NCBI GenBank assembly: GCA_963753315.1
Contig: CAVWCI010000015.1
Location: 5,518-69,517 of the forward strand
Direction: 5' to 3'
Source: an uncultured Alphaproteobacteria bacterium
GTDB taxonomy: Bacteria > Pseudomonadota > Alphaproteobacteria > Geminicoccales > Geminicoccaceae
DNA: 64,000 nucleotides
The notes under the pieces were generated by a model, which saw only the letters and a program-made list of their open reading frames with translations, did no database searches and was not told where the DNA came from. A program made the translations under genes and the position numbers. Positions 5,298 to 56,353 of this stretch are shown here, one piece after another (the stretch's first letter is position 1; each line of letters begins with the position of its first letter).

Positions 5298-6698
5298 ATG
5301 GTCAAGTCCCGCATGAATGCCGAAATCCTCATCGTCGACGACGAGCGCGCGGTCCGTCAGGCGATCGCGGCGATCCTCGGCGACGAGGGCTACAGCGTGC
5401 GCCATGCCGCCGAGAGCCAGGCGGCGATCGCCGAGATCGAGGCACGGGCGCCGGGCGTGGTGCTCTTGGACATCTGGCTGGAGGGCTCCAAGCTCGACGG
5501 TCTGGAGGTGCTCGATCACATCAAGCAGACCCGCCCGGAGGTGCCGGTCATCGTGATCAGCGGCCACGGCACGATCGAGACCGCGGTCAAGGCGATCAAG
5601 AAGGGCGCCTACGACTTTCTCGAGAAGCCGTTCAACGCCGACCGTCTGCTGCTGCTGATCGAGCGGGCGCGCGAAGCCACCAGGCTCAAGCGCGAGAACG
5701 CCGAGCTCAAGCTCAAGCTCGGCGACGACCGCGAGCTGATCGGCAGGTCGAGCGCGATCCAGCAGGTGCGCAACGCGATCTCGCGGGTGGCGCTGACCGG
5801 CAGCCGGGTGCTGATCACCGGCGCGCCTGGGGTCGGCAAGGAGGTCGTGGCGCGGCTGATCCACGCGAGCTCGCGGCGCTCAGAGGCGCCGTTCGTGGTG
5901 ATCAACGCCGCGACCATGGCGCCCGAGCGCATGGAGGTCGAGCTGTTCGGCTGCGAGGCGGGCTTCCTCGGGCCCGAGCGGCCGCGCCAGCCCGGCACCT
6001 TCGAGCGCGCGCATGGCGGCACGCTGCTGCTGGACGAGGTCGCCGACATGCCGCTCGAGACCCAGGGCAAGATCCTGCGCGTGCTGCAGGAGCAGAGCTT
6101 CACCCGGCTGGGCGGCCAGCGGCCGATCCAGGTCGATGTGCGCGTGATCGCCGCGAGCAATCGGGACCTGCTGGCGGAGATCGCCGCGGGCCGCTTCCGC
6201 GAGGACCTCTACTATCGTCTGAACGTCGTGCCGATCCCGGTGCCGCCGCTCTCGGAGCGGCGCGCCGACATCCCGATGCTGACCGACTACTTCATGGGGC
6301 GCGCCGCCGAGGCGTCCGGCCTGCCGGTCCGCAAGCTGTCGGCCGACGCGCTCGCCCTGTTCCAGTCCGCCAGCTGGCCCGGCAATGTCCGCCAGCTGCG
6401 CAACGTGCTCGAATGGCTGCTGATCATGGCGACCGGCGATGCCCGCGCCGAGATCGGCGTCGACAGCCTGCCGCCCGAGCTGATCGAGGAGACCACCGCG
6501 AGCCTCAGCCCCAGCTCCAACGGCGAGCTGATGGTCATGCCGATCCGCGAGGCGCGCGAGCATTTCGAGCGCGCCTATCTGCAGGCGCAGCTGGAGCGCT
6601 TCAGCGGCAATATCTCGCGCACCGCCGGGTTCGTCGGCATGGAGCGCTCGGCGCTGCATCGCAAGTTGAAGTCGCTCAACATCTCCGCCGATGACTGA
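5298..6698 (+). CDS. ntrX: sigma54-type response regulator NtrX
   Basis: 466-aa ORF with a receiver domain (ILIVDDE), AAA+ (GAPGVGKE, ELFGCEAG) and a C-terminal HTH. Position is the canonical one after ntrY. Confidence 0.9.
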   Translation: MVKSRMNAEILIVDDERAVRQAIAAILGDEGYSVRHAAESQAAIAEIEARAPGVVLLDIWLEGSKLDGLEVLDHIKQTRPEVPVIVISGHGTIETAVKAIKKGAYDFLEKPFNADRLLLLIERAREATRLKRENAELKLKLGDDRELIGRSSAIQQVRNAISRVALTGSRVLITGAPGVGKEVVARLIHASSRRSEAPFVVINAATMAPERMEVELFGCEAGFLGPERPRQPGTFERAHGGTLLLDEVADMPLETQGKILRVLQEQSFTRLGGQRPIQVDVRVIAASNRDLLAEIAAGRFREDLYYRLNVVPIPVPPLSERRADIPMLTDYFMGRAAEASGLPVRKLSADALALFQSASWPGNVRQLRNVLEWLLIMATGDARAEIGVDSLPPELIEETTASLSPSSNGELMVMPIREAREHFERAYLQAQLERFSGNISRTAGFVGMERSALHRKLKSLNISADD

Positions 6699-8425: not shown

Positions 8426-8692
8426 ATGTCCGCCGAGAAGACACAGAATGTGCAGGACGTGTTTCTGAATCACATTCGAAAGAACAAGATCCCAGTCACG
8501 ATCTTCTTGATCAACGGCGTAAAGCTTCAGGGTGTCATCAGCTCATTCGACAACTTCTCGCTGTTGCTGCGGCGCGACGGTCACGTGCAGCTGGTCTACA
8601 AGCACGCCGTCTCGACGGTCATGCCGTCGACGGTCGTGCGTCTCTACGAGCCGAGCGCCGAGGAGGCGGCCAGCGCTCCGGCTGCCCGGTGA
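8426..8692 (+). CDS. hfq: RNA chaperone Hfq
   Basis: 88-aa ORF with the Sm fold sequence [58 protein letters not shown]. Confidence 0.97.
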
Positions 8693-8714
8693 TCGGCCCG
8701 GATCGGACGATCTC

Positions 8715-10073
8715 TTGCAGGACGAGGACCGGGCACGTGGCGATGCGGGCGGGCGCCGCCAGCGCGCGCTGGTGCTGCACCCGCGCCCGGGCGGGCATGG
8801 TCGGCCCGCGCGCAGCGACGAGGGGCGCCTGGCCGAAGCGGTCGGGCTGAGCCAGGCGATCGACCTCGAGGTGGTCGATGCGGCGGTCGTGCCGTTGCGC
8901 CGACCGAGCCCTGCCACCCTGATCGGGCCCGGCAGGATGCGCGCGATCGGCGAGGAGGTCGCGCTGCGGGCGATCGACCTCGTGATCGTCGACGCCGCGC
9001 TGAGCCCGGTGCAGCAGCGCAACCTCGAGCGCGCCTGGAAGTGCAAGGTGATCGACCGCACCGGGCTGATCCTGGAGATCTTCGGCGCCCGGGCGCAGAG
9101 CCGGGAAGGCAGCCTGCAGGTCGAGCTGGCGGCGCTGACCTATCAGCGCTCGCGCCTGGTCCGCTCCTGGACGCATCTCGAGCGCCAGCGCGGCGCTTTG
9201 GGGTTCATCGGCGGTCCGGGCGAATCGCAGATCGAGCTCGACCGCCGCCGCATCGACGAGCGCATCGATCGGATCAAGCGCGACCTCGAGGCCGTCAAGC
9301 GGACCCGCGGCCTGCACCGCCAGGCGCGCCGGCGCGTGCCCTATCCGGTGATAGCACTGGTCGGCTACACCAACGCCGGCAAGTCGACCCTGTTCAACCG
9401 CCTGACCGGGGCCACGGTCGGTGCCCGCGACCAGCTGTTCGCGACCCTCGATCCGACCATGCGCGAGCTCGTCCTGCCGTCCGGCCGGCACGCGATCCTC
9501 TCGGACACGGTCGGCTTCATCGCACAGTTGCCGACCAGTCTGATCGCGGCGTTCCGGGCGACGCTCGAGGAGGTGCACAGCGCCGATCTCGTGATCCATG
9601 TGCGTGACATCGCCCATCCCGAGAGCGCGGCGCAGCGCGCGGATGTGCTGGTCGTGCTGCGCGACCTCGGGCTCGAGCACCTGGTCGACGAGGGGCGCCT
9701 GGTGGAGCTGTGGAACAAGGTCGACCTGCTGTCGGCGGAGGAGGCGGCGCGCATGGCCGAGGCCGCGGCCCGCCTGCCCGAGGTCGTGCTCGGCTCGGCC
9801 CGAACCGGCCGGGGGCTGGATGGTCTGCTCGCCGAGCTCGATCGCCGCTTTGCCAGCACGGCCCGGGTGGTCGAGCTGGATCTGGCCGCCAGCGACGGCG
9901 CCGGCCTCGCCTGGCTGTATCGCCACGGCACCGTGCTGAGCCGCAGCGACCGGGACGATCGCACCCGCCTCAAGGTGGCTCTCGACCCCGCCGATCACGC
10001 GCGCCTGAGCGAGCGCTTCAGAGCCGGCGAGATCGTCGAATCGCCCGGCGGAAAATCCCACCAGCACCGTTGA
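8715..10073 (+). CDS. hflX: GTPase HflX
   Basis: The frame of ORF 8532..10073 carries GTPase motifs [17 protein letters not shown] and NKVD. The true start must lie after the hfq stop; the in-frame TTG at 8715 is tentative. Confidence 0.88.
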
Positions 10074-10098
10074 CACCCTGCCGCGCGCGGCCTATATG
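10070..10098 (+). promoter_or_regulatory. sigma70-like promoter candidate for groESL
   Basis: TTGACA (10070-10075), a 16-17 nt spacer, then CTATAT/TATATG (10092-10098). It overlaps the hflX stop codon and lies just upstream of CIRCE. Confidence 0.4.
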
Positions 10099-10102
10099 CC
10101 GG

Positions 10103-10129
10103 CTGGCACTCACCTTGCGAGAGTGCTGA
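10103..10129 (+). promoter_or_regulatory. CIRCE (HrcA operator) inverted repeat
   Basis: CTGGCACTC-N9-GAGTGCTGA compared with the consensus TTAGCACTC-N9-GAGTGCTAA; 75 nt upstream of the groES ATG. Confidence 0.75.
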
Positions 10130-10203
10130 CAATCATCATGGCACGCGGCTCAGCGGGGGCGCACGCGCGCCCTTTGGCATATGTGGGACGCACGGAGGGT
10201 CGA

Positions 10204-10518
10204 ATGAAGATCAAGCCTTTGCACGATCGAGTGGTGGTCCGCCGGATCGACGAGGAAGAGCGCACGCCCGGTGGCGTGATCATCCCGGACACCGCCAAGG
10301 AGAAGCCCATGCAGGGCGAGGTCCTGGCGGTCGGTCCCGGGGCGCGGGACGAGAGCGGCAAGCGAATTCAGCCGGACGTCAAGGCGGGCGACACCATCCT
10401 GTTCGGCAAGTGGTCGGGGACCGAGGTCAAGATCGACGGCGACGAGCTGTTGATCATGAAGGAGTCCGACATCATGGGCATCATCGAGAAGTCGGGAGCC
10501 GCCAGCAAGGCGGCGTGA
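10204..10518 (+). CDS. groES: co-chaperonin GroES
   Basis: Internal ATG of ORF 10096..10518 gives [35 protein letters not shown]..., 104 aa. Confidence 0.97.
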
Positions 10519-10543
10519 CGGTATCGATCGGCAACGTAGTTGA

Positions 10544-12214
<1,671 letters not shown>

Positions 12215-12240
12215 CAGACCCAAGCCTGCTCTTTTGCATC

Positions 12241-12270
12241 GGGGCCGCTCCTTCGGGGGCGGCCCTTTTG
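12241..12270. terminator. GC-rich hairpin followed by a T-run, between convergent groEL and mazG
   Basis: GGGGCCGCTCCTTCGGGGGCGGCCCTTTTG: stem GGGCCGC/GCGGCCC followed by TTTT. Confidence 0.5.
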
Positions 12271-12287
12271 CTATGCGGCGTCGGGCT

Positions 12288-13088
12288 TCACTCGCGCGCC
12301 TTCGCCGCCTGCCAGAGCGCTTCCATTTCTTCGAGCGAGGCGTCCTCGAGATCGCGGCCGGCGGCGCGAAGCGCCTCCTCGATCGCCCGGAAGCGGCGCT
12401 CGAATTTCTGGTTGGCCCGGCGCAGCGCGCTCTCGCCGTCGATGCCGAGATGGCGGGCGATGTTGACCGCGGCGAACAGCAGGTCGCCGACCTCGCCCTC
12501 CAGGCGCTCATGCGATGCGCCGGCCGCGAGCTCGGCCTTCACCTCGGCCAGCTCCTCCTCGAGCTTGGCGAGCACCGGGCCGAGCTCGGCCAGTCGAAGC
12601 CCACCCGGGCGGCGCGGCGCTGCAGCTTGGTCGCGCGCGTCAGCGCCGGCAGGCCGATCGGCAGATCGGCCAGGATGCTCGCATCGCCGCCCGCCTGCTT
12701 TTGCGCGCGCTCGGCGGCCTTGGCGTCCTCCCAGGCGACGCTCTGCGCCGCGGCGCTCTCGACCTCGGTCGCGCCGAACACGTGCGGATGCCTTCGGATC
12801 ATTTTTTCGGCGATCCGCGCGGCGACCGTCTCGAAGTCGAAGCGGCCGGCCTCCTTGGCCATCTGGGCGTGATAGACCACCTGGAGCAGCAGGTCGCCCA
12901 GCTCGCCCTCGAGATCGTCGAAAATCCTGCCGCTCGATCGCATCGGCGACCTCGTAGGCTTCCTCGATCGTATAGGGGGCGATGCTCGAGAAATCCTGCT
13001 CGAGGTCCCAGGGGCAGCCGCCCTCCGGATCGCGCAGGCGCGCCATGACTTTTAGCAGGCACTCGATGCCGCTGCGGGCTTGCGCCAT
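12288..13088 (-). pseudogene. mazG: nucleoside triphosphate pyrophosphohydrolase MazG, frame-disrupted as sequenced
   Basis: The N-terminus (MAQARSGIECLLKVMARLRDPEGGCPWDLEQDF...) and the C-terminus (ELGPVLAKLEEELAEVK...EEMEALWQAAKARE) share one frame. The middle (DDLEGELGDLLLQVVYHAQMAKEAGRFDFE...RVGFDWP) sits in ORF 12539..12943. Frame changes are near 12920 and 12590. Confidence 0.8.
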
Positions 13089-14660
13089 CAGAGCAGCCGC
13101 TTCTGCTCGCCGCCGGTCGGCTGCGGACGGCCGGGGCCGCGGCTGCTGCGCAGGGTCTGGACGCGGCCGTCGTGGAACTCGAGCTCGAGGGCTACCTGCT
13201 GCGCGCGCCCGCGCGGCGCTGTCGACCAGCCGGCCATGCTCGTCGCGCACCAGGGCGAAGCCGCGCGCCAGCACGCCCTGATAGCTGAGGCTCGAGAGCA
13301 TGCCGGACGCCGCGCGCAGCCGCTCGCCGGCATCGCGCAGGCCGCGCAGGGTCGCATGCTGCTGGCGCGTCGACAGCTCGCCGACCAGCCGCGCGTGGCG
13401 CGGCAGCCGCTGGCCGAGCTCGTCCAGGCGCAGCCGCCCGCCCAGCCGGCCGAGCTCGCCGGTGCGCTCGCGCAGCAGCGAGCGGAACACGTAGCGGAGC
13501 TGCTCGGCGCAGGGCCGCAGGCGGCCGTCGGCCTCGGCCAGCAGGCGGCCGGGCGAGCCGAGCCGGGCGCCGACCTCGGCGAGGTTGAGGCCGGCGCGCT
13601 CGATCCGCGCCGCAAGGCTGTGCGGCAGGCGCTCGGCCAGATCGTCCAGGCGCTGGCTCGCCTGGCCCACCAGGCTCACCGGGTCGGGCAGGCCGCGCGC
13701 CAGCCCCACCACCCGGTGCCCCAGCTGCCGCAGCTCGCGCTGCACGCCGTGCAGCATGCTCTGCTCGCACTGGCCAAGGCGCAGCGCCAGCTCGGTGCGC
13801 ACCGGCACGGCAAGCTCGGCAGCCGCCGTCGGCGTCGGCGCGCGCTGGTCGGCGGCGAGATCGATCAGCGTCGTGTCGGTCTCGTGGCCGACCGCCGAGA
13901 TCAGCGGGATCGCGCTCGCCGCCGCAGCCCGGACCACGGCCTCCTCGTTGAACGCCCAGAGGTCCTCCAGCGAGCCGCCGCCGCGCGCCACGATCAGAAG
14001 ATCGGGACGGGGCACGGCGCCGCCCGGTGCCAGCGCGTTGAAGCCCGCGATCGCGGCGGCCACCTGTCCGGCCGCCAGCTCGCCCTGGACCACCACCGGC
14101 CACAGCAGCACGCGGCGCGGGAAGCGCTCGCCCAGGCGGTGCAGGATGTCGCGGATCACGGCCCCGGTCGGCGAGGTCACGAGGCCGATCACCTCGGGCA
14201 GAAAGGGAAGAGGCCGCTTGCGCTCGGCCGCGAACAGGCCCTCGGCGGCCAGCCTCCTGCGGCGCTCGTCGAGCAGCGCCATCAGCGCGCCGATGCCGGC
14301 CGGCGCCAGGCGATCGACGATCAGCTGATAGCGCGAGCGGCTCGGATAGGTGGTGATCCGGCCGGTCGCGACCACCTCGAGCCCGTCCTCGGGCAAGCTC
14401 GCGAGGCGTTGCGCCGTGCTGCGCCAGCAGACCGCGTCCAGCACCGCGCCCTCGTCCTTGAGCGCGAAGTAGAGATGGCCTGAGCCCGCGCGCTTGAAGC
14501 CCGAGATCTCGCCGCGCACGCGCACGTAGGCGTAGCCGTCCTCGAGCGTGCGCTTGAGCGCTGCCGCGAGCTCGCTGACGCTGTACTCGGCGACATTCTC
14601 GCGCGGTGGCTCGCTCGGCTGGGGCTCGTTCGGCTGGGGCTCGTTCACGGTATCGGGCAC
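13088..14660 (-). pseudogene. xseA: exodeoxyribonuclease VII large subunit XseA, frame-disrupted near its 3-prime end
   Basis: YSVSELAAALKRTLEDGYAYVRVRGEISGFKRAGSGHLYFALKDE...ARGGGSLEDLWAFNEE...SAVGHETD. The last ~37 aa (QQVALELEFHDGRVQT...) are in ORF 13088..13615, with the shift near 13205. The stop overlaps the mazG ATG (ATGA). The start is GTG at 14660 or 14648. Confidence 0.85.
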
Positions 14661-30605: not shown

Positions 30606-33066
30606 TCACGGGATCGGGCAGGGCTCGGCCGCCCAGATCTCGGCGGCGTACTCCGCGATCGTCCGGTCGCTCGAGAATTTTCCCGAGCGGGCGACGTTGA
30701 CGATCGCCTTGCGGGTCCACTCTTCGGGGTCGGCGTAAAGCGCTCCGAGCCGGGCCTGCGCGGCCGCGTAGGCCGAAAGGTCGGCCAGGTGCATGTAGTA
30801 GTCGCCCTCGGTCAGCAAGGTGTCCCAGATCGGCTGAAAGATCCCGGGCTCGTCGGGGTTGAAGTGGCCCGCGCGGATCAGGTCGAGCGCGGCCCGGGTC
30901 TCGGGCTCGTTGTGGTAGTGCCACCAGGGGCTGTACCAGCCGCGGCTGGCCTCCACCTGCTCCGTGCTCAGCCCGAACAGGAAGACGTTGTCCTCGCCCG
31001 CCTCCTCGGCGATCTCGATCGTCGCCCCGTCGCGCGTGCCCACGGTCAAGGCGCCGTTCATCATCAGCTTCATGTTGCTCGTGCCGCTCGCCTCGTAGCC
31101 TGCCGTGGAGATCTGCTCCGAGACGTCGCTCGCCGGGATCAGCCGCTGCGCCACCGTCACGCCGTAGTTCGGCACGAACACGAGGTTGATCCGGCCGCGC
31201 GTGGCGGGCTCCGCGGCGAGCGCCGCCGCGATGCTGTTGGCGAGCTTGATGATCAGCTTGGCCAGGCGATAGGCGGGTGCTGCCTTGCCGGCGAGGAAGA
31301 AGGTGCGCGGCGGCACATCGAGGCCCGGATCGGCGCGCAGGCGGTTGTAGAGCACGACGATGTGCAAAAGGTTCAGGATCTGCCGCTTGTACGCGTGAAT
31401 GCGCTTGATCTGGCTGTCGAACATGGTCTCGGGGTCGACCACCTGACCGGTCGTCTGCTTCAGCCAGTCGACGAAGCGGACCTTGGCGTCGCGCCTGGCC
31501 TTCTGGAAGCTCTTGCGGAACGCGGCGTCGTCCGCGAGCGGCAGGAGGCCCTCGAGACGGTCGAGGTCCGTGACCCAGCGGTCGCCGATCGCCTCGGTGA
31601 TCAGGCGTGCTAGCGGCGGATTGGCCAGCAGCAGCCAGCGCCGCGGCGTGACGCCGTTGGTCTTGTTGGTGAAGCGCTCCGGCCAGATCTCGGCGAAGTC
31701 CTTCAAAAGACGCGTGCGCAGCAGCTCCGAATGGATCGCGGCGACCCCGTTGGTGCGATGCGCGCCGACCACGGCAAGATGCGCCATGCGGACCTGCCGG
31801 GCCGGCCCTTCCTCGATCAGGCTCATGCGGCGCAGCCGCTCGGCATCGCCCGGATGGCGCGAGCTGACGTCGTCCAGAAAGCGGCGATTGATCTCGTAGA
31901 CGATCTCCAGCAGACGCGGCGCCAGGATCTCGAACATCCCGACCGGCCACTTCTCGAGCGCCTCGGGCAGCAGGGTGTGGTTGGTGTAGGCGAGCGTGCC
32001 GACCGTGAGCTTCCAGGCCTCGTCCCAGCCGAGATGGGCCTCGTCCAGCAGGATGCGCATGAGCTCCGCCACCGCCATCGCCGGATGCGTGTCGTTGAGC
32101 TGGATCGCGACCTTGTCGGGCAGGGCGTGCCAGTCGTTGCTGCGGCGAAAGCGCCTGACGATGTCGGCCAGCGAGCAGCAGACCAGAAAATACTCCTGCA
32201 GGAAGCGCAGCGCATGGCCTTCGACGGTGGAATCGTCGGGATACAGCACGCGCGTGACCGTCTCGGCCGCCATGCGGTCGACCAGCGCGCCGACGAAGTC
32301 GCCGGTGCTGAACTCGCCGAAGTCGAAGTAGTCGGGCGAGGCAGCACTCCCAGAGCCGCAGGCTGTTGATCGCCTTGCCGCCGTAGCCGACGACCGGCCG
32401 GTCGTAGGGCACGCCGAGCAGGCAGGAGGGGCGGTCGCGCACCACGCGCAGGCGGCCGGCCTCCAGCGCGAACGAGCACGCGATCGGCACGTGCACGGTC
32501 TCGCGCGGGCGCACGACCTCCCAGGGATCGGGCCGCAGCAGCCAGGGATCGGGCCGCTCGACCTGCCAGCCGTTGTCGATCTCCTGGCGAAAGATGCCGT
32601 ACTCGTAGCGCAGGCCGTAGCCGGTCGCCGGGATCTGCATGGTCGCGAGCGAATCGATGAAGCAGGCGGCCAGGCGCCCGAGCCCGCCATTGCCGAGCCC
32701 GGCATCCGGCTCGGCCTCGAGCACCTCGGCCCAGTCCTGGCGCGGGTCCGAGCCGAGGTCCTTGCGCACCAGCGCCTCGAGCCCGAGGTTGATGATGTTG
32801 TTGGCGAGCGAGCGGCCGAGCAGGAACTCCATCGAGAGGTAGTAGACCCGCTTGGCGTTCGCCTGGTCCTGCGTCTTCTGGGTCAGCAGCCAGCGCTGGC
32901 TCAGGACGTCGCGCAGCGAGCGCGCCACGGCCTCGAAGCGCTCGCGCTGATCGGCGTTCTCGAGGCTCACCACGTGGTCGAAGACCAGGTGGCGGTCGTA
33001 GTCGTCCTCGCCGCGCAGCCGCACCGGGCCGACCTCGTACTGCTTCAGGATGTCGTCGTTGGCCAT
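30606..33066 (-). pseudogene. glgP: glycogen/maltodextrin phosphorylase, frame-disrupted
   Basis: The N-terminus (MANDDILKQYEV...YYLSMEFLLGRSL...GLGNGGLGRLAACFIDS) is in the frame of ORF 29182..33255. The remainder is in ORF 30606..32705 (...TNHTLLPEALEKW...EASGTSNMKLMMNGALTVGTRDGATIE). There is a single shift near 32345. Confidence 0.9.
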
Positions 33067-33118: not shown

Positions 33119-33508
33119 CTACTCTGCTGCGACGCTCGAAGGCGGCTCGACGACCTTGGTCGCGAAATTGGCCGGCGAGACGATCTCCAGCACCTCGAAG
33201 TCGTCCGAGCAGGCGATCTCGCGGTGCTTGATCGCGGGCGTCTGCAGGATCGCATCGCCCTTGCGGATCGTGCGCTGCCCTTGCCCCTCGTACTCGAAGG
33301 TCGCCCAGCCGTTCAGCACGAGCACGAACTGGAAGTCGCACTCGTGGATGTGCCAGTGCTGCACCTGGTCCTTCTGCTTCTTGCCGTTGTGCCGGATGAT
33401 GTGGGCGACGTAGTCCCCCTTGGTCCCGTCCTTGATGCCGAGGTCGCGGTAATCGAAAATCTCGCGCAGGCCGGGCGCCCACTTGGCATCGCCCGCCTGG
33501 TTGTGCAC
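33119..33508 (-). CDS. cupin-domain protein
   Basis: 129-aa ORF with a GTG start and cupin motifs HWHIHECDFQFVLVLNGWATFEYEG and GDAILQTPAIKHREI. Confidence 0.7.
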   Translation of the reverse strand: MHNQAGDAKWAPGLREIFDYRDLGIKDGTKGDYVAHIIRHNGKKQKDQVQHWHIHECDFQFVLVLNGWATFEYEGQGQRTIRKGDAILQTPAIKHREIACSDDFEVLEIVSPANFATKVVEPPSSVAAE

Positions 33509-33591
33509 GAAGTCCCACGCCTTCGTCCCTTTGCCGCCATCATCGCCTCCATTGCGTTCGGCCCGTCGTCACGGACCGTCCCTGCAACCCG

Positions 33592-33637
33592 CAGTTCACA
33601 CGACCGTGACGCCGCTGTCCACCGAAAGCACCTGGCC
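33592..33637. repeat. left copy of a perfect 46-bp direct repeat (orphan copy of the SDR gene 3-prime end)
   Basis: CAGTTCACACGACCGTGACGCCGCTGTCCACCGAAAGCACCTGGCC is identical to 35165-35210. Plus-strand ORFs 33224..33751 and 34947..35624 both contain SSHDRDAAVHRKHLA, which confirms the repeat independently. Confidence 0.92.
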
Positions 33638-33674
33638 ACTGCCTGCTCGGCGCTACGCCTGAGCCGCCGCATCG

Positions 33675-35138
33675 TCAGCCCGCTGGCGCGAGCCGGTTCG
33701 CGAGGGTCGGTGTGTTCGTCGGGCCTCGCCAGTCTAGTAGCGCTAGCATGATGCGCTCAACGACTGTCTGGAGGCGTTTCTGCTCCTGGACGATGACCGC
33801 AATGGCGACCTCTTCCGCCCCGTGGACCAGCGAATTGCGAATCCTGATGGTACAACGCAGCGCGTCATGACCTCCGATGTCGTCCAGATTGACCTTCAGC
33901 CGCTTCAAATGTTTGTTAAGTCTCTGCCGAAATGCCGGGCGTGCCAGTTCGGAGATCTTTGCGCTGATCACCGAGACAGTCTGAGGATTCTTGCCCATGT
34001 CCGTGAGTTGGCTACGTAAATATTGATCAATAGTGCGCAGTTCTTTGGGGCTTATCACTTCCCAAGGGTATTTAAGGTCAAGCGAACTGACGATTTTCTC
34101 TAGGCAGCTAAAGAGAAGGGTGAATTGTTCGTCTACGGTCGGTGCAGACTGCGCAGCTAAGTATATGAGGATCGGCAATCGAAGTCTCATTCCCTCCAGA
34201 GATCTCTTTTCGTATGCCGTGAAGGCACCGTTTATGAACCGGCGGACATCCCTAGATGGCAGCACGATGTCCTCCCACCGAACCCGCCAATTCGAACTCT
34301 CTCGAGTGTCGCCCCGATACTGTTCGAGTAGCCTACCGTCGGACCATAGGGTCCGCGCATACCAAGTCACATTGGACTTAGAGAGAAAAGAGACGAGAAG
34401 ACACAGAACTTCGGCAACCTCCAGCGCTCGCGCCTCGAAGTTTGAGTCCGTGCGTTCGAGATCGCGATCGGTAAGCGTCAGAGAGAAGGCTTCAGCTTCG
34501 ACAGAGAGGTGCAGCTTTTCGAGGGCACGATATCTATCTTCGTGTGGGGGCAGCAAACGTTCGGCCTCTCGGCGGCCGGCATAGAGAAAATGCGGTTGTG
34601 CAGTGATCGCCAAATCCCCGACTTCAGAGATACGCAGATTGGCACTGCGAAATTCGGTTTTCGTGCTTCCCAAATAAGAGAACGTCCGAATTGCGTCCGA
34701 CATCCAAACGAGCGTTGGCCCCGTCAGAAGCAAAGTCATCTGACGGTTACCCATTCCGCGCTGCCCGTAGTCGCAGTCGATCGTGATATCGTAGGGTTCG
34801 AAGCGGCCGAGGATCTGTTGAATAATTTTGCTTTCGTCATCAGGGTAAATGCGCGCGCTCATTTCTCGAAGCAGAACCTGCCTCGAACGAACCTTCTCGC
34901 GGCCCTGGGCTGCGGAAACACTTTCTAGCTCGCATACAGGTGACTGGTGTGCATGGAAGAAAGAATTAAGTTCAGGCCAGTCAGCGGCTGTTCCGCGAAT
35001 GATGCCGATCGGGGGGTGAGCGTTGAGGGGCGAATAGCGAATGTCGATGGAGAACGGTTTCGTCGTAAGGTCTCCGTCCCGGAACACGCCCGCGAACTCC
35101 AACGATTTCGTGAAAAGGACTGTGTCGACCGCGGACAT
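33675..35138 (-). CDS. orphan 487-aa protein with a C-terminal HEPN-like Rx4H motif (candidate abortive-infection/defence RNase)
   Basis: Intact 487-aa ORF with an ATG start and low GC. The C-terminal region reads ...GGHDALRCTIRIRNSLVHGAEEVAIAVIVQEQKRL..., with RNSLVH at aa 434-439 (33822-33839). I recognise no family in the N-terminal ~400 aa. Confidence 0.75.
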   Translation of the reverse strand: MSAVDTVLFTKSLEFAGVFRDGDLTTKPFSIDIRYSPLNAHPPIGIIRGTAADWPELNSFFHAHQSPVCELESVSAAQGREKVRSRQVLLREMSARIYPDDESKIIQQILGRFEPYDITIDCDYGQRGMGNRQMTLLLTGPTLVWMSDAIRTFSYLGSTKTEFRSANLRISEVGDLAITAQPHFLYAGRREAERLLPPHEDRYRALEKLHLSVEAEAFSLTLTDRDLERTDSNFEARALEVAEVLCLLVSFLSKSNVTWYARTLWSDGRLLEQYRGDTRESSNWRVRWEDIVLPSRDVRRFINGAFTAYEKRSLEGMRLRLPILIYLAAQSAPTVDEQFTLLFSCLEKIVSSLDLKYPWEVISPKELRTIDQYLRSQLTDMGKNPQTVSVISAKISELARPAFRQRLNKHLKRLKVNLDDIGGHDALRCTIRIRNSLVHGAEEVAIAVIVQEQKRLQTVVERIMLALLDWRGPTNTPTLANRLAPAG

Positions 35139-35164
35139 CTGGCCAAGTCTTTCGATGCTCGCTT

Positions 35165-35210
35165 CAGTTCACACGACCGTGACGCCGCTGTCCACCGAAA
35201 GCACCTGGCC
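35165..35210. repeat. right copy of the 46-bp direct repeat (functional 3-prime end of the SDR gene)
   Basis: Identical to 33592-33637. It encodes the last 13 codons GQVLSVDSGVTVV plus the stop of the SDR gene on the minus strand. Confidence 0.92.
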
Positions 35211-35949
35211 CGTGGTGATCGCGGATTCGTCCGAGGCGAGGTAGACCGCCATGTCGGCGACGTGGATCGGCAGGCCCAGGCCGAGGAGGTGAGTCTCGCC
35301 GATCTTCGCGATCTCCGGGCTCGCCGCCATCAGCCGCTTCACGCGCTCCGTCAAGGTCACCGAGGGTGCGATCGCGTTCACCCGGATCTTGTAGGGCGCA
35401 TATTCGACCGCCATCGAGCGCGTCATCGAGGCGATGCCGCCCTTGGCCGCGGTGTAGCAGTCGCGCCCGGGCAGGGCCATGAGCGCCACGTTCGACGACA
35501 TGTTGATGACCGAGCCGCCGCCCGCCTCGATGATTTTCGGGATCGCAAGCTTGCTGCAAAGGAACGTGCCGTAGAGATCCAGCCTGATCACCCGCCAGAA
35601 CTCCTCGTCCGGGCGCCTGCGTGACCGGGCCGTCGGCAGTGGTCGAGCCGCCGGCGTTGTTGTGCAGCACGTTCAGCCTGCCGAAATTCTCGATCGTCGC
35701 CGCGATCGCGGCCGCGACGCTCGAAGGCTCGGTGACGTCGCAGTGCACGAACCGGGCATCGCCGCCCGCATTGCCCGCGGCCGCGCGCGCCGCCTCGGCC
35801 GCGGCCTCGCCGCTCTCGCGGTCGATCTCGGCGATCACCACCTTCGCCCCTTCTTCGGCGAAGCGCTCGGCGGTCGCCCGGCCGATGCCGCCGCCGCCAC
35901 CGGTGATGAACGCCACCTTGCCAGCCAGCCTGCCGCCCGCCCGTGCCAT
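35169..35949 (-). pseudogene. short-chain dehydrogenase/reductase (SDR), frame-disrupted
   Basis: The N-terminus GKVAFITGGGGGIGRATAERFAEEGAKVV...NNAG (ORF 35164..35949) continues in ORF 35169..35591 (LYGTFLCSK...NMSS...YTAAKGGIASMTRSMAVEYAPYKIRVNAIAP). The shift is near 35600. Confidence 0.8.
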
Positions 35950-35979
35950 GTCCGCTCCCCCGATGCCGCCTTGCCGGCT

Positions 35980-36726
35980 TCAGGCCTGCTCTGCCTGCCA
36001 GGCCTCGCCCTGGACGATCAGGCCCAGGACCTCGTGCTCGTCCGTATCCTTGACGTAGCGCTCGCCGACGCGGCGGCCGCGCTTGAGGACCATGACGCGA
36101 TCGCCGACCTCGAAAATGTCCTGCAGGCGGTGGCTGATGATGATCTGCGCGACGTTGTGGCGCTTGAGCTCCAGCATGGTCTCGAGCAGCCGCTCGGTCG
36201 CCATGACGGAGAGGTTCGCGGTCGGCTCGTCGAGCACGATCACCTTGGGATCGAACGAGATCGCGCGCGCGATCGCCACCGACTGCTGGCGGCCGCCGGA
36301 GAGGCTCTCGACCTTCTGGTAGACGGAGTTGACGTCGACCTTGAGGCGCCCGAGCACCTCGCTCGCCTCGCGGTACATCTTCTTGCGGTTGACGAAGAAG
36401 CCGCGCTTCGGCCAGCGGCCGAGGAAGATGTTCTGGCCGACGTCCATGTTCCCGCACAGCGCGAAGTCCTGGTAGATCATCTCGATGCCGACCTCGCGGC
36501 TGTCGTGCGGGCTCTTGAAATGGGTCTCCTGGCCGGCGACGAGGACATCGCCGGAATCGCGCGCATAAGCGCCGGTGAGGATCTTCATCAGCGTCGACTT
36601 GCCGGCCGAGTTGTCGCCGACGAGACCCAAGATCTCGCCGGGATAGAGGGTGAGATCGACGTCGGCCAGCGCCGTGACCGCGCCAAAAGCCTTGCTGATG
36701 CGTCGCATCTCGACGATCGGCGTCAC
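35980..36726 (-). CDS. sugar ABC transporter ATP-binding protein (single ABC domain)
   Basis: GTG start with AGAGGA RBS. Walker A GDNSAGKST, signature LSGGRQQSVAIARA, Walker B VIVLDEPT. Confidence 0.9.
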   Translation of the reverse strand: MTPIVEMRRISKAFGAVTALADVDLTLYPGEILGLVGDNSAGKSTLMKILTGAYARDSGDVLVAGQETHFKSPHDSREVGIEMIYQDFALCGNMDVGQNIFLGRWPKRGFFVNRKKMYREASEVLGRLKVDVNSVYQKVESLSGGRQQSVAIARAISFDPKVIVLDEPTANLSVMATERLLETMLELKRHNVAQIIISHRLQDIFEVGDRVMVLKRGRRVGERYVKDTDEHEVLGLIVQGEAWQAEQA

Positions 36727-54632: not shown

Positions 54633-54884
54633 CGCTCCCCCTCGCTTCGCCGGAGCGTCGTCGCAAGCACCGGGCCTGTCAAGGAAGAGGGGGCAGTGGT
54701 CTAAGGCGTGGAGAGTTCGACGAACGCCACGTTCTGGCGCAAGCCCACCATTTGGACCGGACAGAAGCCATGGCAGCCTTGGTCATGGGCGGGTATTCCT
54801 CACGTCGGTTGTGAACGTCCATCGACGGCACGGAGGCGCGATTTATTCCTGACATGCCTGTTGGACGCGGCTAGAGTGGCAATC

Positions 54885-55778
54885 ATGGACTTTCGCTCAC
54901 TCCTGGCTCGGCACCGCTCAGATCTTGCTCTGGTCATTGGCAATGGTATCAACAGATATGGCTCGGCGCCCAACACGAACTCATGGCACGATCTGTTGGT
55001 AACGCTCGCTAGCAAGTTTATTGGAAAACAAAGTGAAAAAATCCCGGCCGGCATCGCACTCACTGAGTTTTACGATATTCTAGAATTGAAGTCTGGACCG
55101 AGCGTACCTGGGAAATCGCTGCAAAAAGAATTCAGCAATCTGATGCGAGAATGGACGCCGCACGAGCATCATAGGCGGATTGTCTACTGGGCAGCTCAAG
55201 CCCGATGCCCGTTGCTAACCACAAATTTTGAGAATGTCCTCGGCGAAGCCGGTGCGTGCACGTTGCTCCATACCCAACGAGATGGATTTACGGATTACTA
55301 TCCCTGGGAAACCTACTACGGACATGGACCGCTTACTGATCCTAGCGTCGGGTTTGGAATATGGCATATCAATGGGATGGAACGCTATCGACGCAGCATC
55401 CGACTCGGATTAACCCACTATATGGGATCTGTCGAGAGAGCAAGAAGTTGGATTCACAAAGGCAAGGAGAGAAGGCTCTTTTCTGGAAACAGCGCACGCG
55501 AGTGGCGAGGCGCGGGCACTTGGCTACACATAGTTTTTAATAAACCCCTTTTGATCTTTGGCCTCGGTCTTGAAGAAAATGAAATTTTCCTTAGATGGCT
55601 TCTTATAGAGAGAGCAAGATATTTCCGAAAGGTTCCCGAAAGAAAGAAGCAAGCGTGGTATATGCATATTGACGAGATGGCTGGCTCAGGAAAGCTCTTT
55701 TTCCTGGAAGGCGTGGGCGTCAAGCCTATCAGGGCCAGGAGCTACGACGAGCTGTACGGTGTGGCGACCTGGACTTGA
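54885..55778 (+). CDS. standalone SIR2-like (SIR2_2-type) protein, candidate NAD-consuming defence effector
   Basis: Low-GC ORF 54708..55778; the likely ATG is at 54885 (297 aa). Motifs occur in SIR2 order: LALVIGNGIN (Rossmann glycine loop), PLLTTNFENVL (Asn 55224-55226), GIWHINGM (His 55365-55367), PLLIFGLGLEENEIFLRWLL. Confidence 0.7.
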   Translation: MDFRSLLARHRSDLALVIGNGINRYGSAPNTNSWHDLLVTLASKFIGKQSEKIPAGIALTEFYDILELKSGPSVPGKSLQKEFSNLMREWTPHEHHRRIVYWAAQARCPLLTTNFENVLGEAGACTLLHTQRDGFTDYYPWETYYGHGPLTDPSVGFGIWHINGMERYRRSIRLGLTHYMGSVERARSWIHKGKERRLFSGNSAREWRGAGTWLHIVFNKPLLIFGLGLEENEIFLRWLLIERARYFRKVPERKKQAWYMHIDEMAGSGKLFFLEGVGVKPIRARSYDELYGVATWT

Positions 55779-56321
55779 TGGGCCCGCCCAAAAGCACCCC
55801 TGATCGGGACAGGGAGTGCGTCCTCCTCGACGGCGGAGAGCGAGAAGGGTGGCGAACCGCGCCTGAGCCGATCGATCGAGCCCCTCGACTGGAACGCCGG
55901 CGCCCTTTGATCTCGAAGGCACCCTCGACCCCGGCAGCGACCTGCGAAGAGCAGTTCTTGCCCGATCGAAGACCCTTCTCCTGCCGCGACGGCGCCCTGG
56001 CGCATGGTGGTGCAAAAATGCGACGGGTGACGCAAGAATGCGACGGGGTGGCGCATATCACATGCCGCAGCGCACGGTGCGCGTCGCATGCCTTCCCTTC
56101 GCCCGCGCGGTGCGGGACGATCATTCCTGGAGCTCTGATTCGGTTAAACTTGGCACTGCCTGTTGCAGCGCCTCCCCATTGGCGAGGCCTCGTCCGCACC
56201 AGCCTCCCCTTGAACCAACCCGGAAGCCGCCATGCGTCGTCCCGGAGCCGCGTCTGGCGCGGCGTCTTCGAGCATTCCCCGCGCCGCAGGTCGCCACCGC
56301 CGGCGCGCGCGAAAAAAACCA

Positions 56322-56353
56322 ATCGAACCTGAAGCCCGCGGAAATCCTGGCGA
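56322..56353 (+). repeat. copy 1 of an imperfect 32-nt direct repeat in a non-coding stretch
   Basis: ATCGAACCTGAAGCCCGCGGAAATCCTGGCGA matches copy 2 at 28 of 32 positions. Confidence 0.6.

Follow-up and report, generated by a model that had tools for sequence, protein, structure and literature searches.

The window, the whole stretch of 64,000 nucleotides that was analysed, belongs to a high-GC soil alphaproteobacterium near Geminicoccaceae MAGs. On its minus strand lies an ABC-transporter/SDR/cupin operon with an insertion between the SDR gene (35169..35949) and the cupin gene (33119..33508), which natively follows the SDR gene in the operon; the two genes are neighbours in about 40 further loci. 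The SDR protein ends in ...SVDSGVTVV, with the stop codon at 35169-35171. A comparison with three relatives showed that the SDR frame is broken by one surplus C in a CCC run near 35610, which is probably a long-read assembly error, and glgP in the same assembly also carries single-base frameshifts. The true ATG of the cupin gene probably lies about 30-40 nt farther upstream. The window's SDR gene gave no mosaic signal when its identity to three related loci, L086, L140 and L006, was profiled.

The insertion is bounded by a 46-bp direct repeat, CAGTTCACACGACCGTGACGCCGCTGTCCACCGAAAGCACCTGGCC, for which the initial annotation had reported exact copies at 33592-33637 and 35165-35210. Both copies were confirmed; allowing up to three mismatches brought out no third copy, and none of 100 shuffles produced a match. 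The identity stops at the 46-bp limits on both sides, where the adjoining bases are unlike. The right copy (35165..35210, minus strand) is the genuine 3' end of the SDR gene, made up of the last 13 codons, TGA and ACTG, and is identical at 46/46 positions to the single 46-mer of L140. The left copy (33592..33637, minus strand) is an orphan duplicate of this 3' end; behind it, the native SDR-cupin spacer, which includes the cupin start region (33509..33591, minus strand), is intact. The DNA directly behind the orphan, CGGGTTGCAGGGAC..., is the SDR-cupin spacer of L140 and L086, and the earlier assignment of the right copy as the true gene end and of the left copy as the orphan was upheld. The idea that the orphan copy was kept as a promoter was rejected, as no promoter-like site was found in it and a ribosome-binding site is already present in the spacer. 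An empty site with a single 46-mer, which had been anticipated in relatives, was found in both L140 and L086 (SDR 97% and 96% at the amino-acid level, respectively), where the order is SDR-TGA-ACTG-CGGGTTGCAGGGAC-cupin. Because these two closest relatives have the empty site, the insertion is recent.

The inserted foreign DNA is 1,527 bp long (33638..35164, minus strand) and is missing from L140 and L086. Its low GC content, which the initial annotation had noted, was borne out at 0.553 compared to 0.692 ± 0.023 in the other 1.5-kb windows (z = -6.2), and its GC3 was 0.62 compared to 0.92-0.93 for the SDR, cupin, glgP and thiolase genes. These results supported the conclusion that a foreign single gene was acquired horizontally, and recently, between two operon genes. 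As had been described, one 487-aa open reading frame, oriented like the SDR gene (ORF487, 33675..35138, minus strand), fills the insert, with its ATG 26 nt from the right repeat and its stop 37 nt from the left repeat. The 26-nt leader (35139..35164, minus strand) and the ACTG together make up the 30-nt spacer behind the SDR stop, and ORF487 is in frame with the SDR gene, separated from it by the TGA and 10 codons. The leader showed no homology to the upstream flanks of other ORF487-family members. The 37-nt 3' flank (33638..33674, minus strand), in which there is a small hairpin, GCUCAGGCG-UAG-CGCCGAGC, without a U-tract, is in part homologous to the 3' flanks at two loci with ORF487 homologues, L005 and L002. 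The junction between the SDR end and the insert reads TGAACTGAAGCGAGCATCG and, were excision exact, the circle would be joined at the 46-mer as ...GGCAGGCAGT/GGCCAGG.... Neither a sigma70-like promoter nor an intrinsic terminator was detected in 33400-36100, in agreement with the earlier view that the gene has no promoter of its own, and ORF487 is predicted to be expressed, probably, by operon read-through. There were no inverted repeats at the ends of the insert, Rfam and tRNA scans of the window gave no matches, and the inspected parts of the window contained no integrase.

ORF487 is predicted to be rich in beta structure at its N-terminus (about aa 1-290) and to end in an Apea-like HEPN domain. 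Its family, which is uncharacterised, comprises about 238 clusters and includes homologues at 61-71% identity, and searches with a family-alignment profile and with a distant member, P0038, gave few additions beyond the first search. ORF487 had no domain match in Pfam and NCBIfam. The Pfam model HEPN_Apea (PF18739) was matched by 17 of 53 family members and the PADLOC Cas13-ApeA models by 11 of 53; the window protein was not among the former and reached no ApeA model. Three residues, E347, R434 and H439, are invariant in the family, and R434-x4-H439 corresponds to the Rx4H motif. The structure of ORF487 was modelled with confidence (pLDDT 91), with about 290 aa folded mainly as beta strands, and a Foldseek comparison of the model with the PDB gave no significant match, including to any recombinase or transposase fold. 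Thus, the statement that the element encodes no recombinase held for both the domains and the fold of ORF487. A tblastn search against plasmids gave no match. Judged from its sequence, the gene is defence-like, as had been proposed, and we infer that it encodes a putative abortive-infection type defence effector with an Apea-like HEPN RNase domain. No flanking repeats surround the ORF487 homologues in L001-L005, L166 and L167.

The same scar was found elsewhere with unrelated cargo. In L007, a 32-bp SDR-end repeat flanks an MBL hydrolase gene that lies on the opposite strand and has native GC, and L089 is a relative with the empty site. In L145, a 51-54-bp SDR-end repeat flanks ppc; an empty site for L145 was not found in the sample. 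In L006, the closest genome, a 104-bp cupin-end repeat flanks an nSTAND1-LRR gene. No second copy of the L007, L145 and L006 cargo genes was present in any fetched locus. None of the four repeat-bounded inserts (window, L007, L145 and L006) has an integrase or recombinase, no transposase or reverse transcriptase lies in them or beside them, and across the inserts there are no terminal inverted repeats or common end motifs, nor are the ends conserved among the family loci. The repeats range from 32 to 104 bp and the breakpoints shift by 4-10 nt between events. In 4/4 cases the gene-to-insert junction lies 0-4 nt past the stop codon, and the homology between lineages with different neighbours ends at the same 0-4 nt position. 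The initial annotation had held that unrelated or native-GC DNA between the same repeats in relatives would speak against horizontal acquisition. L007 and L145 come near to this case, carrying duplicates of their own SDR ends, instead of the 46-mer pair, around unrelated DNA of host-like GC; this pattern fits one-sided homologous recombination and is no argument against horizontal acquisition.

The two copies in L006 differ from each other. The functional cupin gene ends in PPESIAAE, as in L050, and the orphan ends in PPADAQAAE, as in L140. Since these are different natural alleles, the two copies stem from two lineages and are not a target duplication made anew at insertion. The window's copies are identical, and a donor and a recipient origin cannot be told apart there. 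Scars were present at 3 of about 80 SDR ends compared to 1 of about 1,300 other gene ends (1.4 Mb), and the left boundaries in the window, in L007, in L145 and at an orphan in L019 are independent and lie within about 20 nt of each other. Among further candidate repeat pairs, those in L035 and L090 were REP-like hairpin elements, and those in L017, L031, L024, L084 and L085 look like paralogous segments, to judge only by their conserved spacing; all were rejected.

We favour, with moderate confidence, the reading that the 46-bp repeats are an insertion-duplication scar, left when a recircularised donor fragment with one-sided homology integrated by a Campbell-type single crossover. In a related donor the gene would already have been located directly behind the donor SDR gene, and a fragment of this donor's DNA would have entered the cell with homology at one end only, namely the terminal 46 bp of the SDR gene. 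The fragment would then have recircularised, and a single Campbell-type crossover within the short 46-bp stretch would have integrated the circle, giving the order SDR, insert, orphan SDR end and cupin. The 46-mer is 100% conserved in L140, as a stretch of homology between donor and recipient would be. The locus is a gene-flux hotspot, and donors with different neighbours therefore exist; no donor with a plain SDR-ORF487 order was found. In E. coli the minimal efficient RecA-dependent segment is about 25-30 bp. Repeats of 32-51 bp are near this lower limit, and such events should therefore be rare. When E. coli received DNA with one-sided homology, 56 of 60 integrants carried duplications of 109-950 bp of the homologous segment, which was attributed to recircularisation and a single crossover (PMC3240628). 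General homologous recombination with one-sided homology fits the pattern, and the undescribed cassette-capture mechanism suggested by the initial annotation was not supported. The clustering of the left boundaries can, we argue, be explained in the recombination model solely if short repeats are the stable survivors.

The repeats might instead be remnants of a larger tandem duplication, or of a template switch during replication, with the insert at the junction and later deletions trimming the rest, an account that we regard as unlikely. It draws on L005, which holds the closest ORF487 homologue: the gene there also sits amid SDR and cupin fragments, with a 5' fragment of the SDR gene and a piece resembling the cupin start on one side and the upstream region and start of the SDR gene on the other, which is the order expected at the junction of a duplication estimated at about 900 bp. 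Long repeats are moreover unstable, so only short ones should survive. However, the cupin-like piece is short (14/15 nt, a score reached by 1 of 300 shuffles), and the short-read contig L005 is 1.7 kb long and its two ends adjoin, which makes its true structure uncertain. Several events would also be needed in the short interval that separates the window from L140 and L086, and the two alleles in L006 are left unexplained unless foreign DNA joins in.

It is quite unlikely that the repeats are, as the initial annotation had it, attL and attR of an element that targets the 3' end of the SDR gene, with the insert as a decayed remnant or a CIME-like unit moved in trans. CIMEs are integrase-less, cis-mobilisable elements (reviewed in PMC5704250). 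ICEs in the fda 3' end likewise have direct repeats by which a conserved gene regains its 3' end, and three independent insertions at one gene end would suit an attachment site. The start of the L145 insert resembles the 3' half of a tRNA by eye, but ARAGORN calls no tRNA there. One ORF487 homologue, in L001, adjoins a large serine recombinase; to our knowledge, however, serine recombinases leave no long repeats. An integrase is absent from all four repeat-bounded inserts, the repeats measure 32, 46, 51 and 104 bp with boundaries that move by 4-10 nt, no motifs are shared, and ppc and an MBL hydrolase gene of native GC are among the cargo. The L006 pair, with its two alleles, differs up to the stop codon. 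A larger insert bounded by a second SDR-end copy was seen in 0 of about 80 SDR loci, a count based on repeat copies, not on integrase domains in the downstream genes. Gradual decay is hard to accommodate, since a perfect 46/46 repeat and a gene-sized insert leave no space for it.

We consider it distinctly improbable that a trans-acting enzyme made the structure in one step through cuts staggered by 30-100 nt in the two strands of the target, with fill-in then producing a long and variable target-site duplication. Candidates would be a transposase of the IS1634/IS1549 kind or, for a unit of mRNA size, target-primed reverse transcription; the direct repeats of IS1549 and IS1634 range from 8 to 514 bp (PMC2266710). 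Gene-sized inserts with short leaders and trailers, the perfect repeat in the window and a repeat length that differs from event to event would all fit such an enzyme. Yet the inserts have neither terminal inverted repeats nor conserved ends, there is no transposase or reverse transcriptase in them or next to them, and a poly-A tail or a like mark is absent. Fill-in cannot yield the two alleles of L006, and target choice by an enzyme does not explain why the insert starts are fixed at stop codons.

Very unlikely, in our view, is a dedicated trans mechanism that sets gene-sized DNA behind the stops of conserved genes, with a preference for SDR and cupin gene ends and with ORF487-type genes homing to this locus again and again. 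Long target duplications of variable length would arise in the process, for instance through staggered cleavage of the IS1634 type or target-primed reverse transcription of mRNAs. The enrichment of scars at SDR ends could be read as the result of a targeting mechanism, and the placement of the L005 gene amid SDR and cupin fragments as homing. The single-base frameshifts in the SDR gene and glgP might suggest a chimeric join made in the assembly of a noisy long-read MAG, but this is scarcely credible for an intact 487-aa frame with homologues at 61-71% identity that lies exactly between perfect repeats, the more so as the same architecture recurs in the independently assembled L007 (a NODE-named contig), L145 and L006. 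A diversity-generating retroelement was ruled out, as there is no reverse transcriptase domain and the identical repeats show no adenine-specific differences.

One-sided homologous recombination, as favoured here, would mean that one accessory gene can enter a bacterial operon without mobile-element machinery. The upstream SDR gene remains intact and the downstream cupin gene retains its ribosome-binding region. The event leaves a recognisable scar, in that an orphaned gene 3' end follows the newly gained gene, and such scars could be searched for systematically to gauge the frequency of natural one-armed gene addition. The locus also calls for caution, in that a long direct repeat at the 3' end of a gene is not always an att site.

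Among known systems, Campbell insertion-duplication likewise gives a segment-insert-segment order in which the repeat has the length of the homology and no dedicated recombinase is needed. In the experimental precedent, the repeat lengths were variable after recircularisation of partly degraded DNA (PMC3240628). Compared to such experimental cases, the present events are natural and their repeats shorter (32-104 bp), and the circle and the donor arrangement would have to be supposed. HFIR also combines a homology anchor at one end with an illegitimate joint at the other, which accounts for an insert that starts where the homology ends. In contrast to HFIR, which usually deletes recipient DNA without duplicating any (PMC3240628), the anchor end is duplicated here. 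CIMEs share with the window the direct repeats that rebuild a gene's 3' end and the missing integrase. However, they keep the att core and the crossover point of their cognate ICE, whereas at the present loci neither the repeat lengths nor the boundaries are constant, the cargo genes are unrelated, two alleles make up one of the repeat pairs and a cognate element was not found. IS1634 and IS1549 likewise have long and variable direct repeats, but they possess a DDE transposase and terminal inverted repeats, and the present inserts have neither.

Integron cassettes are, like ORF487, promoterless single-ORF units behind a host promoter. Unlike them, the window has no attC-type imperfect inverted repeat, attI, IntI or array, and has a long target duplication instead; in the 37-nt 3' flank no attC site was recognised, only an 8-bp hairpin. 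The minimal mobile elements of Neisseria are strain-specific whole genes between conserved flanking genes, which are exchanged by homologous recombination through two homologous arms and leave no duplication. The flanking-gene layout is alike, and the event in the window differs by its one-armed homology and its duplication.

The cargo itself resembles ApeA, a single-gene HEPN anti-phage system, in being a single protein with a predicted C-terminal Apea-like HEPN domain and an Rx4H motif. ApeA has been described as predominantly helical (bioRxiv 10.64898/2026.01.26.701840), and a monomer with N-terminal and Mid domains would be expected of an ApeA protein, whereas the first 290 or so residues of ORF487 are beta-rich and have no match among solved structures. 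ORF487 represents a sizeable uncharacterised HEPN family and can reasonably be put forward as a new candidate effector of abortive infection.

The two copies of the 46-bp repeat were located at 35165-35210, where the right copy forms the end of the SDR gene (13 codons, TGA and ACTG), and at 33592-33637, where the left copy is an orphan and 83 nt separate it from the downstream cupin gene, counted to the first start codon in the ORF listing. The sequence occurs exactly twice in the window, no near-copies were found there, and shuffled sequences gave no match. The repeat is exactly 46 bp long, and the bases flanking the two copies differ. The C-terminal 140 aa of the SDR protein matched adh_short_C2 (4e-35). 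The 1,527 bp between the repeats hold a single ORF, ORF487 (33675-35138, minus strand), whose start is 26 nt away from the right repeat and whose stop is 37 nt short of the left repeat; it is in frame with the SDR gene, past the TGA plus ten codons. The GC content of the insert was 0.553 compared to 0.692 ± 0.023 elsewhere in the window (z = -6.2), and its GC3 was 0.62 compared to 0.92-0.93 in the neighbouring genes. These results confirmed the initial annotation of exact repeats at the SDR 3′ end, with an orphan left copy, around a low-GC insert filled by one 487-aa ORF. A search around the insert found neither a sigma70-like promoter nor an intrinsic terminator, in agreement with the claim that ORF487 has no obvious promoter of its own, and no terminal inverted repeats were found on the insert.

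The source organism is close to Geminicoccaceae MAGs, and 160 related loci were obtained by scanning genomes with the cupin protein and metagenomes with the SDR C-terminus as queries. The closest relatives, L140 and L086 (SDR 97% and 96% identical in amino acids), both show the order SDR-TGA-ACTG-CGGGTTGCAGGGAC...cupin. Each holds the 46-mer only once, matching the window at 46/46 and 45/46 positions, respectively. In about 40 further loci, the SDR and cupin genes are also adjacent, with a spacer of 25-110 nt that contains a GGAGG ribosome-binding site. The expected empty site was thus present in the relatives, and the window has therefore gained 1,573 bp (the insert and one repeat copy) compared to species at roughly 90% nucleotide identity. 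The insertion is real and recent, a horizontal acquisition of a candidate HEPN defence gene.

The same scar was found with other cargo. In L007, another Geminicoccaceae MAG, 1.2 kb between SDR and cupin carries an MBL-fold hydrolase gene on the opposite strand at native GC, flanked by a 32-bp SDR-end repeat with a single mismatch; the corresponding empty site is found in L089. In the marine contig L145 (about 45% GC), an SDR 3′-end repeat of 51-54 bp (5369-5422 and 8459-8512, 93% identical, orphan stop codon lost) brackets a 3-kb insert encoding ppc, with an Nramp-like gene behind the orphan. The start of this insert (about 5472-5515, minus strand) resembles a tRNA 3′ half by eye but was not called by ARAGORN. 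In L006, the closest genome, the cupin 3′ end is present as a 104-bp repeat (6267-6370 and 8693-8796, 97%) on both sides of 2.3 kb encoding an nSTAND1 NTPase with leucine-rich repeats. Between events, the SDR-end repeats differ in their boundaries by 4-10 nt. A self-comparison of 166 sequences (1.4 Mb) revealed no other duplications of gene 3′ ends, and the remaining repeat pairs were REP-like hairpins or apparently paralogous segments. Scars were present at 3 of about 80 SDR ends compared to 1 of about 1,300 other gene ends, an approximate contrast with the sampling centred on this locus. In locus L019, an orphan SDR 3′ fragment (5905-5950) precedes the cupin gene; the SDR ortholog is absent from the locus, and a different SDR gene lies divergently upstream.

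The functional cupin gene in L006 ends in PPESIAAE and a stop, an allele type shared with L050 and the window, and the orphan ends in PPADAQAAE, the L140 allele, which is one codon longer and has kept its stop. Such a two-allele pair cannot arise by fill-in duplication, but can be obtained when the resident gene recombines with a homeologous copy arriving with the insert. The gene-to-insert junction is 0-4 nt past the stop codon in each of the four cases, even though spacers of 25-110 nt are available. Several different downstream partners of the SDR gene were found among lineages, and 0-4 nt past the stop is where similarity between lineages with different downstream neighbours would have to end. 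Judged by sequence comparison, the L006 alleles and the stop-codon junctions would decide for recombination with donor DNA over a fresh target duplication.

A single crossover yields a segment-insert-segment layout when the circle involved bears the insert together with a short stretch of the target. When E. coli received DNA with one-sided homology, 56 of 60 integrants had duplicated 109-950 bp of the homologous segment, which the authors ascribed to partial degradation, recircularisation and a single crossover, and 4/60 showed classical homology-facilitated illegitimate recombination, deleting recipient DNA (PMC3240628). Based on the layout and this direct experimental precedent, we read the window as the result of one crossover. 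The donor would be a fragment from a related lineage with ORF487 already 30 nt behind the SDR stop; it would have recircularised while retaining just 46 bp of SDR sequence, and the circle would then have undergone a crossover at the resident SDR end. Surviving insertions would be expected to have short repeats, because recombination between long ones would remove the insert again. The lower limit for such recombination would be about 25-30 bp. A known route of general recombination is thus the probable, though far from certain, explanation of the repeats, rather than a new cassette system.

A larger duplication that was trimmed later is a doubtful alternative, as it needs more steps. Site-specific att sites, as in a CIME (an integrase-less cis-mobilisable element), are quite improbable given the variable repeat boundaries, the unrelated cargo at native GC, the two alleles in the L006 repeat pair and the lack of an integrase in all four cases; on the same grounds, the proposal of att sites or a new cassette-capture mechanism in the initial annotation was not supported. 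Transposition with long staggered cuts has a precedent in IS1634 and IS1549, with repeats of 8-514 bp (PMC2266710), but this route, or retro-insertion, is quite improbable here since the inserts have no conserved ends, no transposase or reverse transcriptase was found, and the L006 alleles speak against it. The window assembly is probably a noisy long-read MAG. Single-base frameshifts split the SDR gene at about 35610, where a CCC run holds an additional C compared to three relatives, as well as glgP (about 32300-32700) and the cupin start (about 33509-33550), which suggests long-read homopolymer errors rather than pseudogenes. An assembly error as the source of the repeat-insert-repeat layout is nevertheless unlikely, because ORF487 is intact and conserved and the same architecture occurs in contigs from independent assemblies.

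The STAND-LRR gene of L006 occupies the position between cupin and glgP, and a 250-nt filler lies between SDR and cupin in the same genome. The locus is a gene-flux hotspot. The gene-content differences around cupin supply donors with one-sided homology, and the flux may explain why scars accumulate there. L050 (5361-6002, 6384-10902) has no SDR gene and carries aldolase, phosphoketolase and phosphatase genes between cupin and glgP, where a flavin monooxygenase gene is found in L140 (785-2569). The closest homologue of ORF487 (71% identity) is encoded by L005, a 1,688-bp short-read contig. SDR codons 8-38 (87.5% nucleotide identity to the window) lie upstream of this gene, followed by a cupin-start-like piece (14/15 nt, a score reached by 1 of 300 shuffles), and downstream are the SDR upstream region and codons 1-7. 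The contig ends (codon 8 and codon 7) abut with one base missing, so L005 is either a circle or a repeat-bounded insert with a much longer duplicated segment, collapsed by the assembler. In both readings it holds a second ORF487-type gene embedded in pieces of the same locus, an arrangement that fits transfer between orthologous loci by homology; homing would also fit.

The search for ORF487 in other contexts found homologues in L001-L004, L166 and L167, all without flanking direct repeats. No upstream flank conservation was found between the window and the other ORF487 loci, and the 3′ flank of the insert is partly similar to those of L005 and L002 up to the end of the 37-nt flank and no further. 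The 46-bp repeat is thus not a feature of the ORF487 gene family. A second single-gene low-GC patch lies at 54700-55790 (GC 0.44-0.58 compared to 0.70, GC3 0.53), with a 297-aa ORF (54885-55778, plus strand) that has a DapA-like gene on one side and GC-rich non-coding DNA on the other. The protein had no Pfam or PADLOC match, and no flanking direct repeat was found. Adjoining this gene are short non-coding modules at 56006-56056 and 56303-56346, one of which holds a 20-nt tandem pair, GGTGGTGCAAAAATGCGACG / GGTGACGCAAGAATGCGACG. In L002, the two modules reappear (21-66, 119-157) upstream of the ORF487 homologue (97% over 39 nt, 80% over 46 nt), but nowhere else among 85 loci, and had no Rfam match. 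They may mark a second shared insertion hotspot.

The ORF487 protein family is a more novel part of the case than the insertion route. Close homologues (61-71% identity) numbered only six among 5.8 billion clustered proteins, and an exhaustive HMMER search gave 238 representative clusters, most of them full-length (about 470-490 aa). ORF487 matched no Pfam or NCBIfam model, and PADLOC gave only a weak HEPN match (aa 363-442). In a 53-member family alignment, E347, R434 and H439 are invariant, the latter two forming the Rx4H motif of HEPN RNases; 17 of the 53 members matched Pfam HEPN_Apea and 11 matched PADLOC Cas13-ApeA models. The defence-like assignment in the initial annotation was supported. 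One member (L001) is in an island adjoining a large serine recombinase and is probably cargo of an integrative island; this homologue (61% identity) lies 240 nt upstream of the 594-aa recombinase (10001-13454), inside a lower-GC patch. The L166 member is beside ORC/Cdc6-like and PRTase-CE genes, read as conflict-system genes, and the L167 member is a low-GC gene behind AdoHcyase. In the confident AlphaFold model of ORF487 (pLDDT 91, pTM 0.89), the N-terminal region (about 290 aa) is mostly beta and the C-terminal domain is helical. Foldseek found no significant match among solved structures and no likeness to a transposase, integrase or recombination nuclease. The family matches, motif, model and neighbourhoods together suggest that ORF487 is a putative abortive-infection RNase. 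It shares the HEPN type with ApeA, but because ApeA proper is described as predominantly helical (bioRxiv 10.64898/2026.01.26.701840), the overall architecture of ORF487, with its beta N-terminus, was judged to be different.
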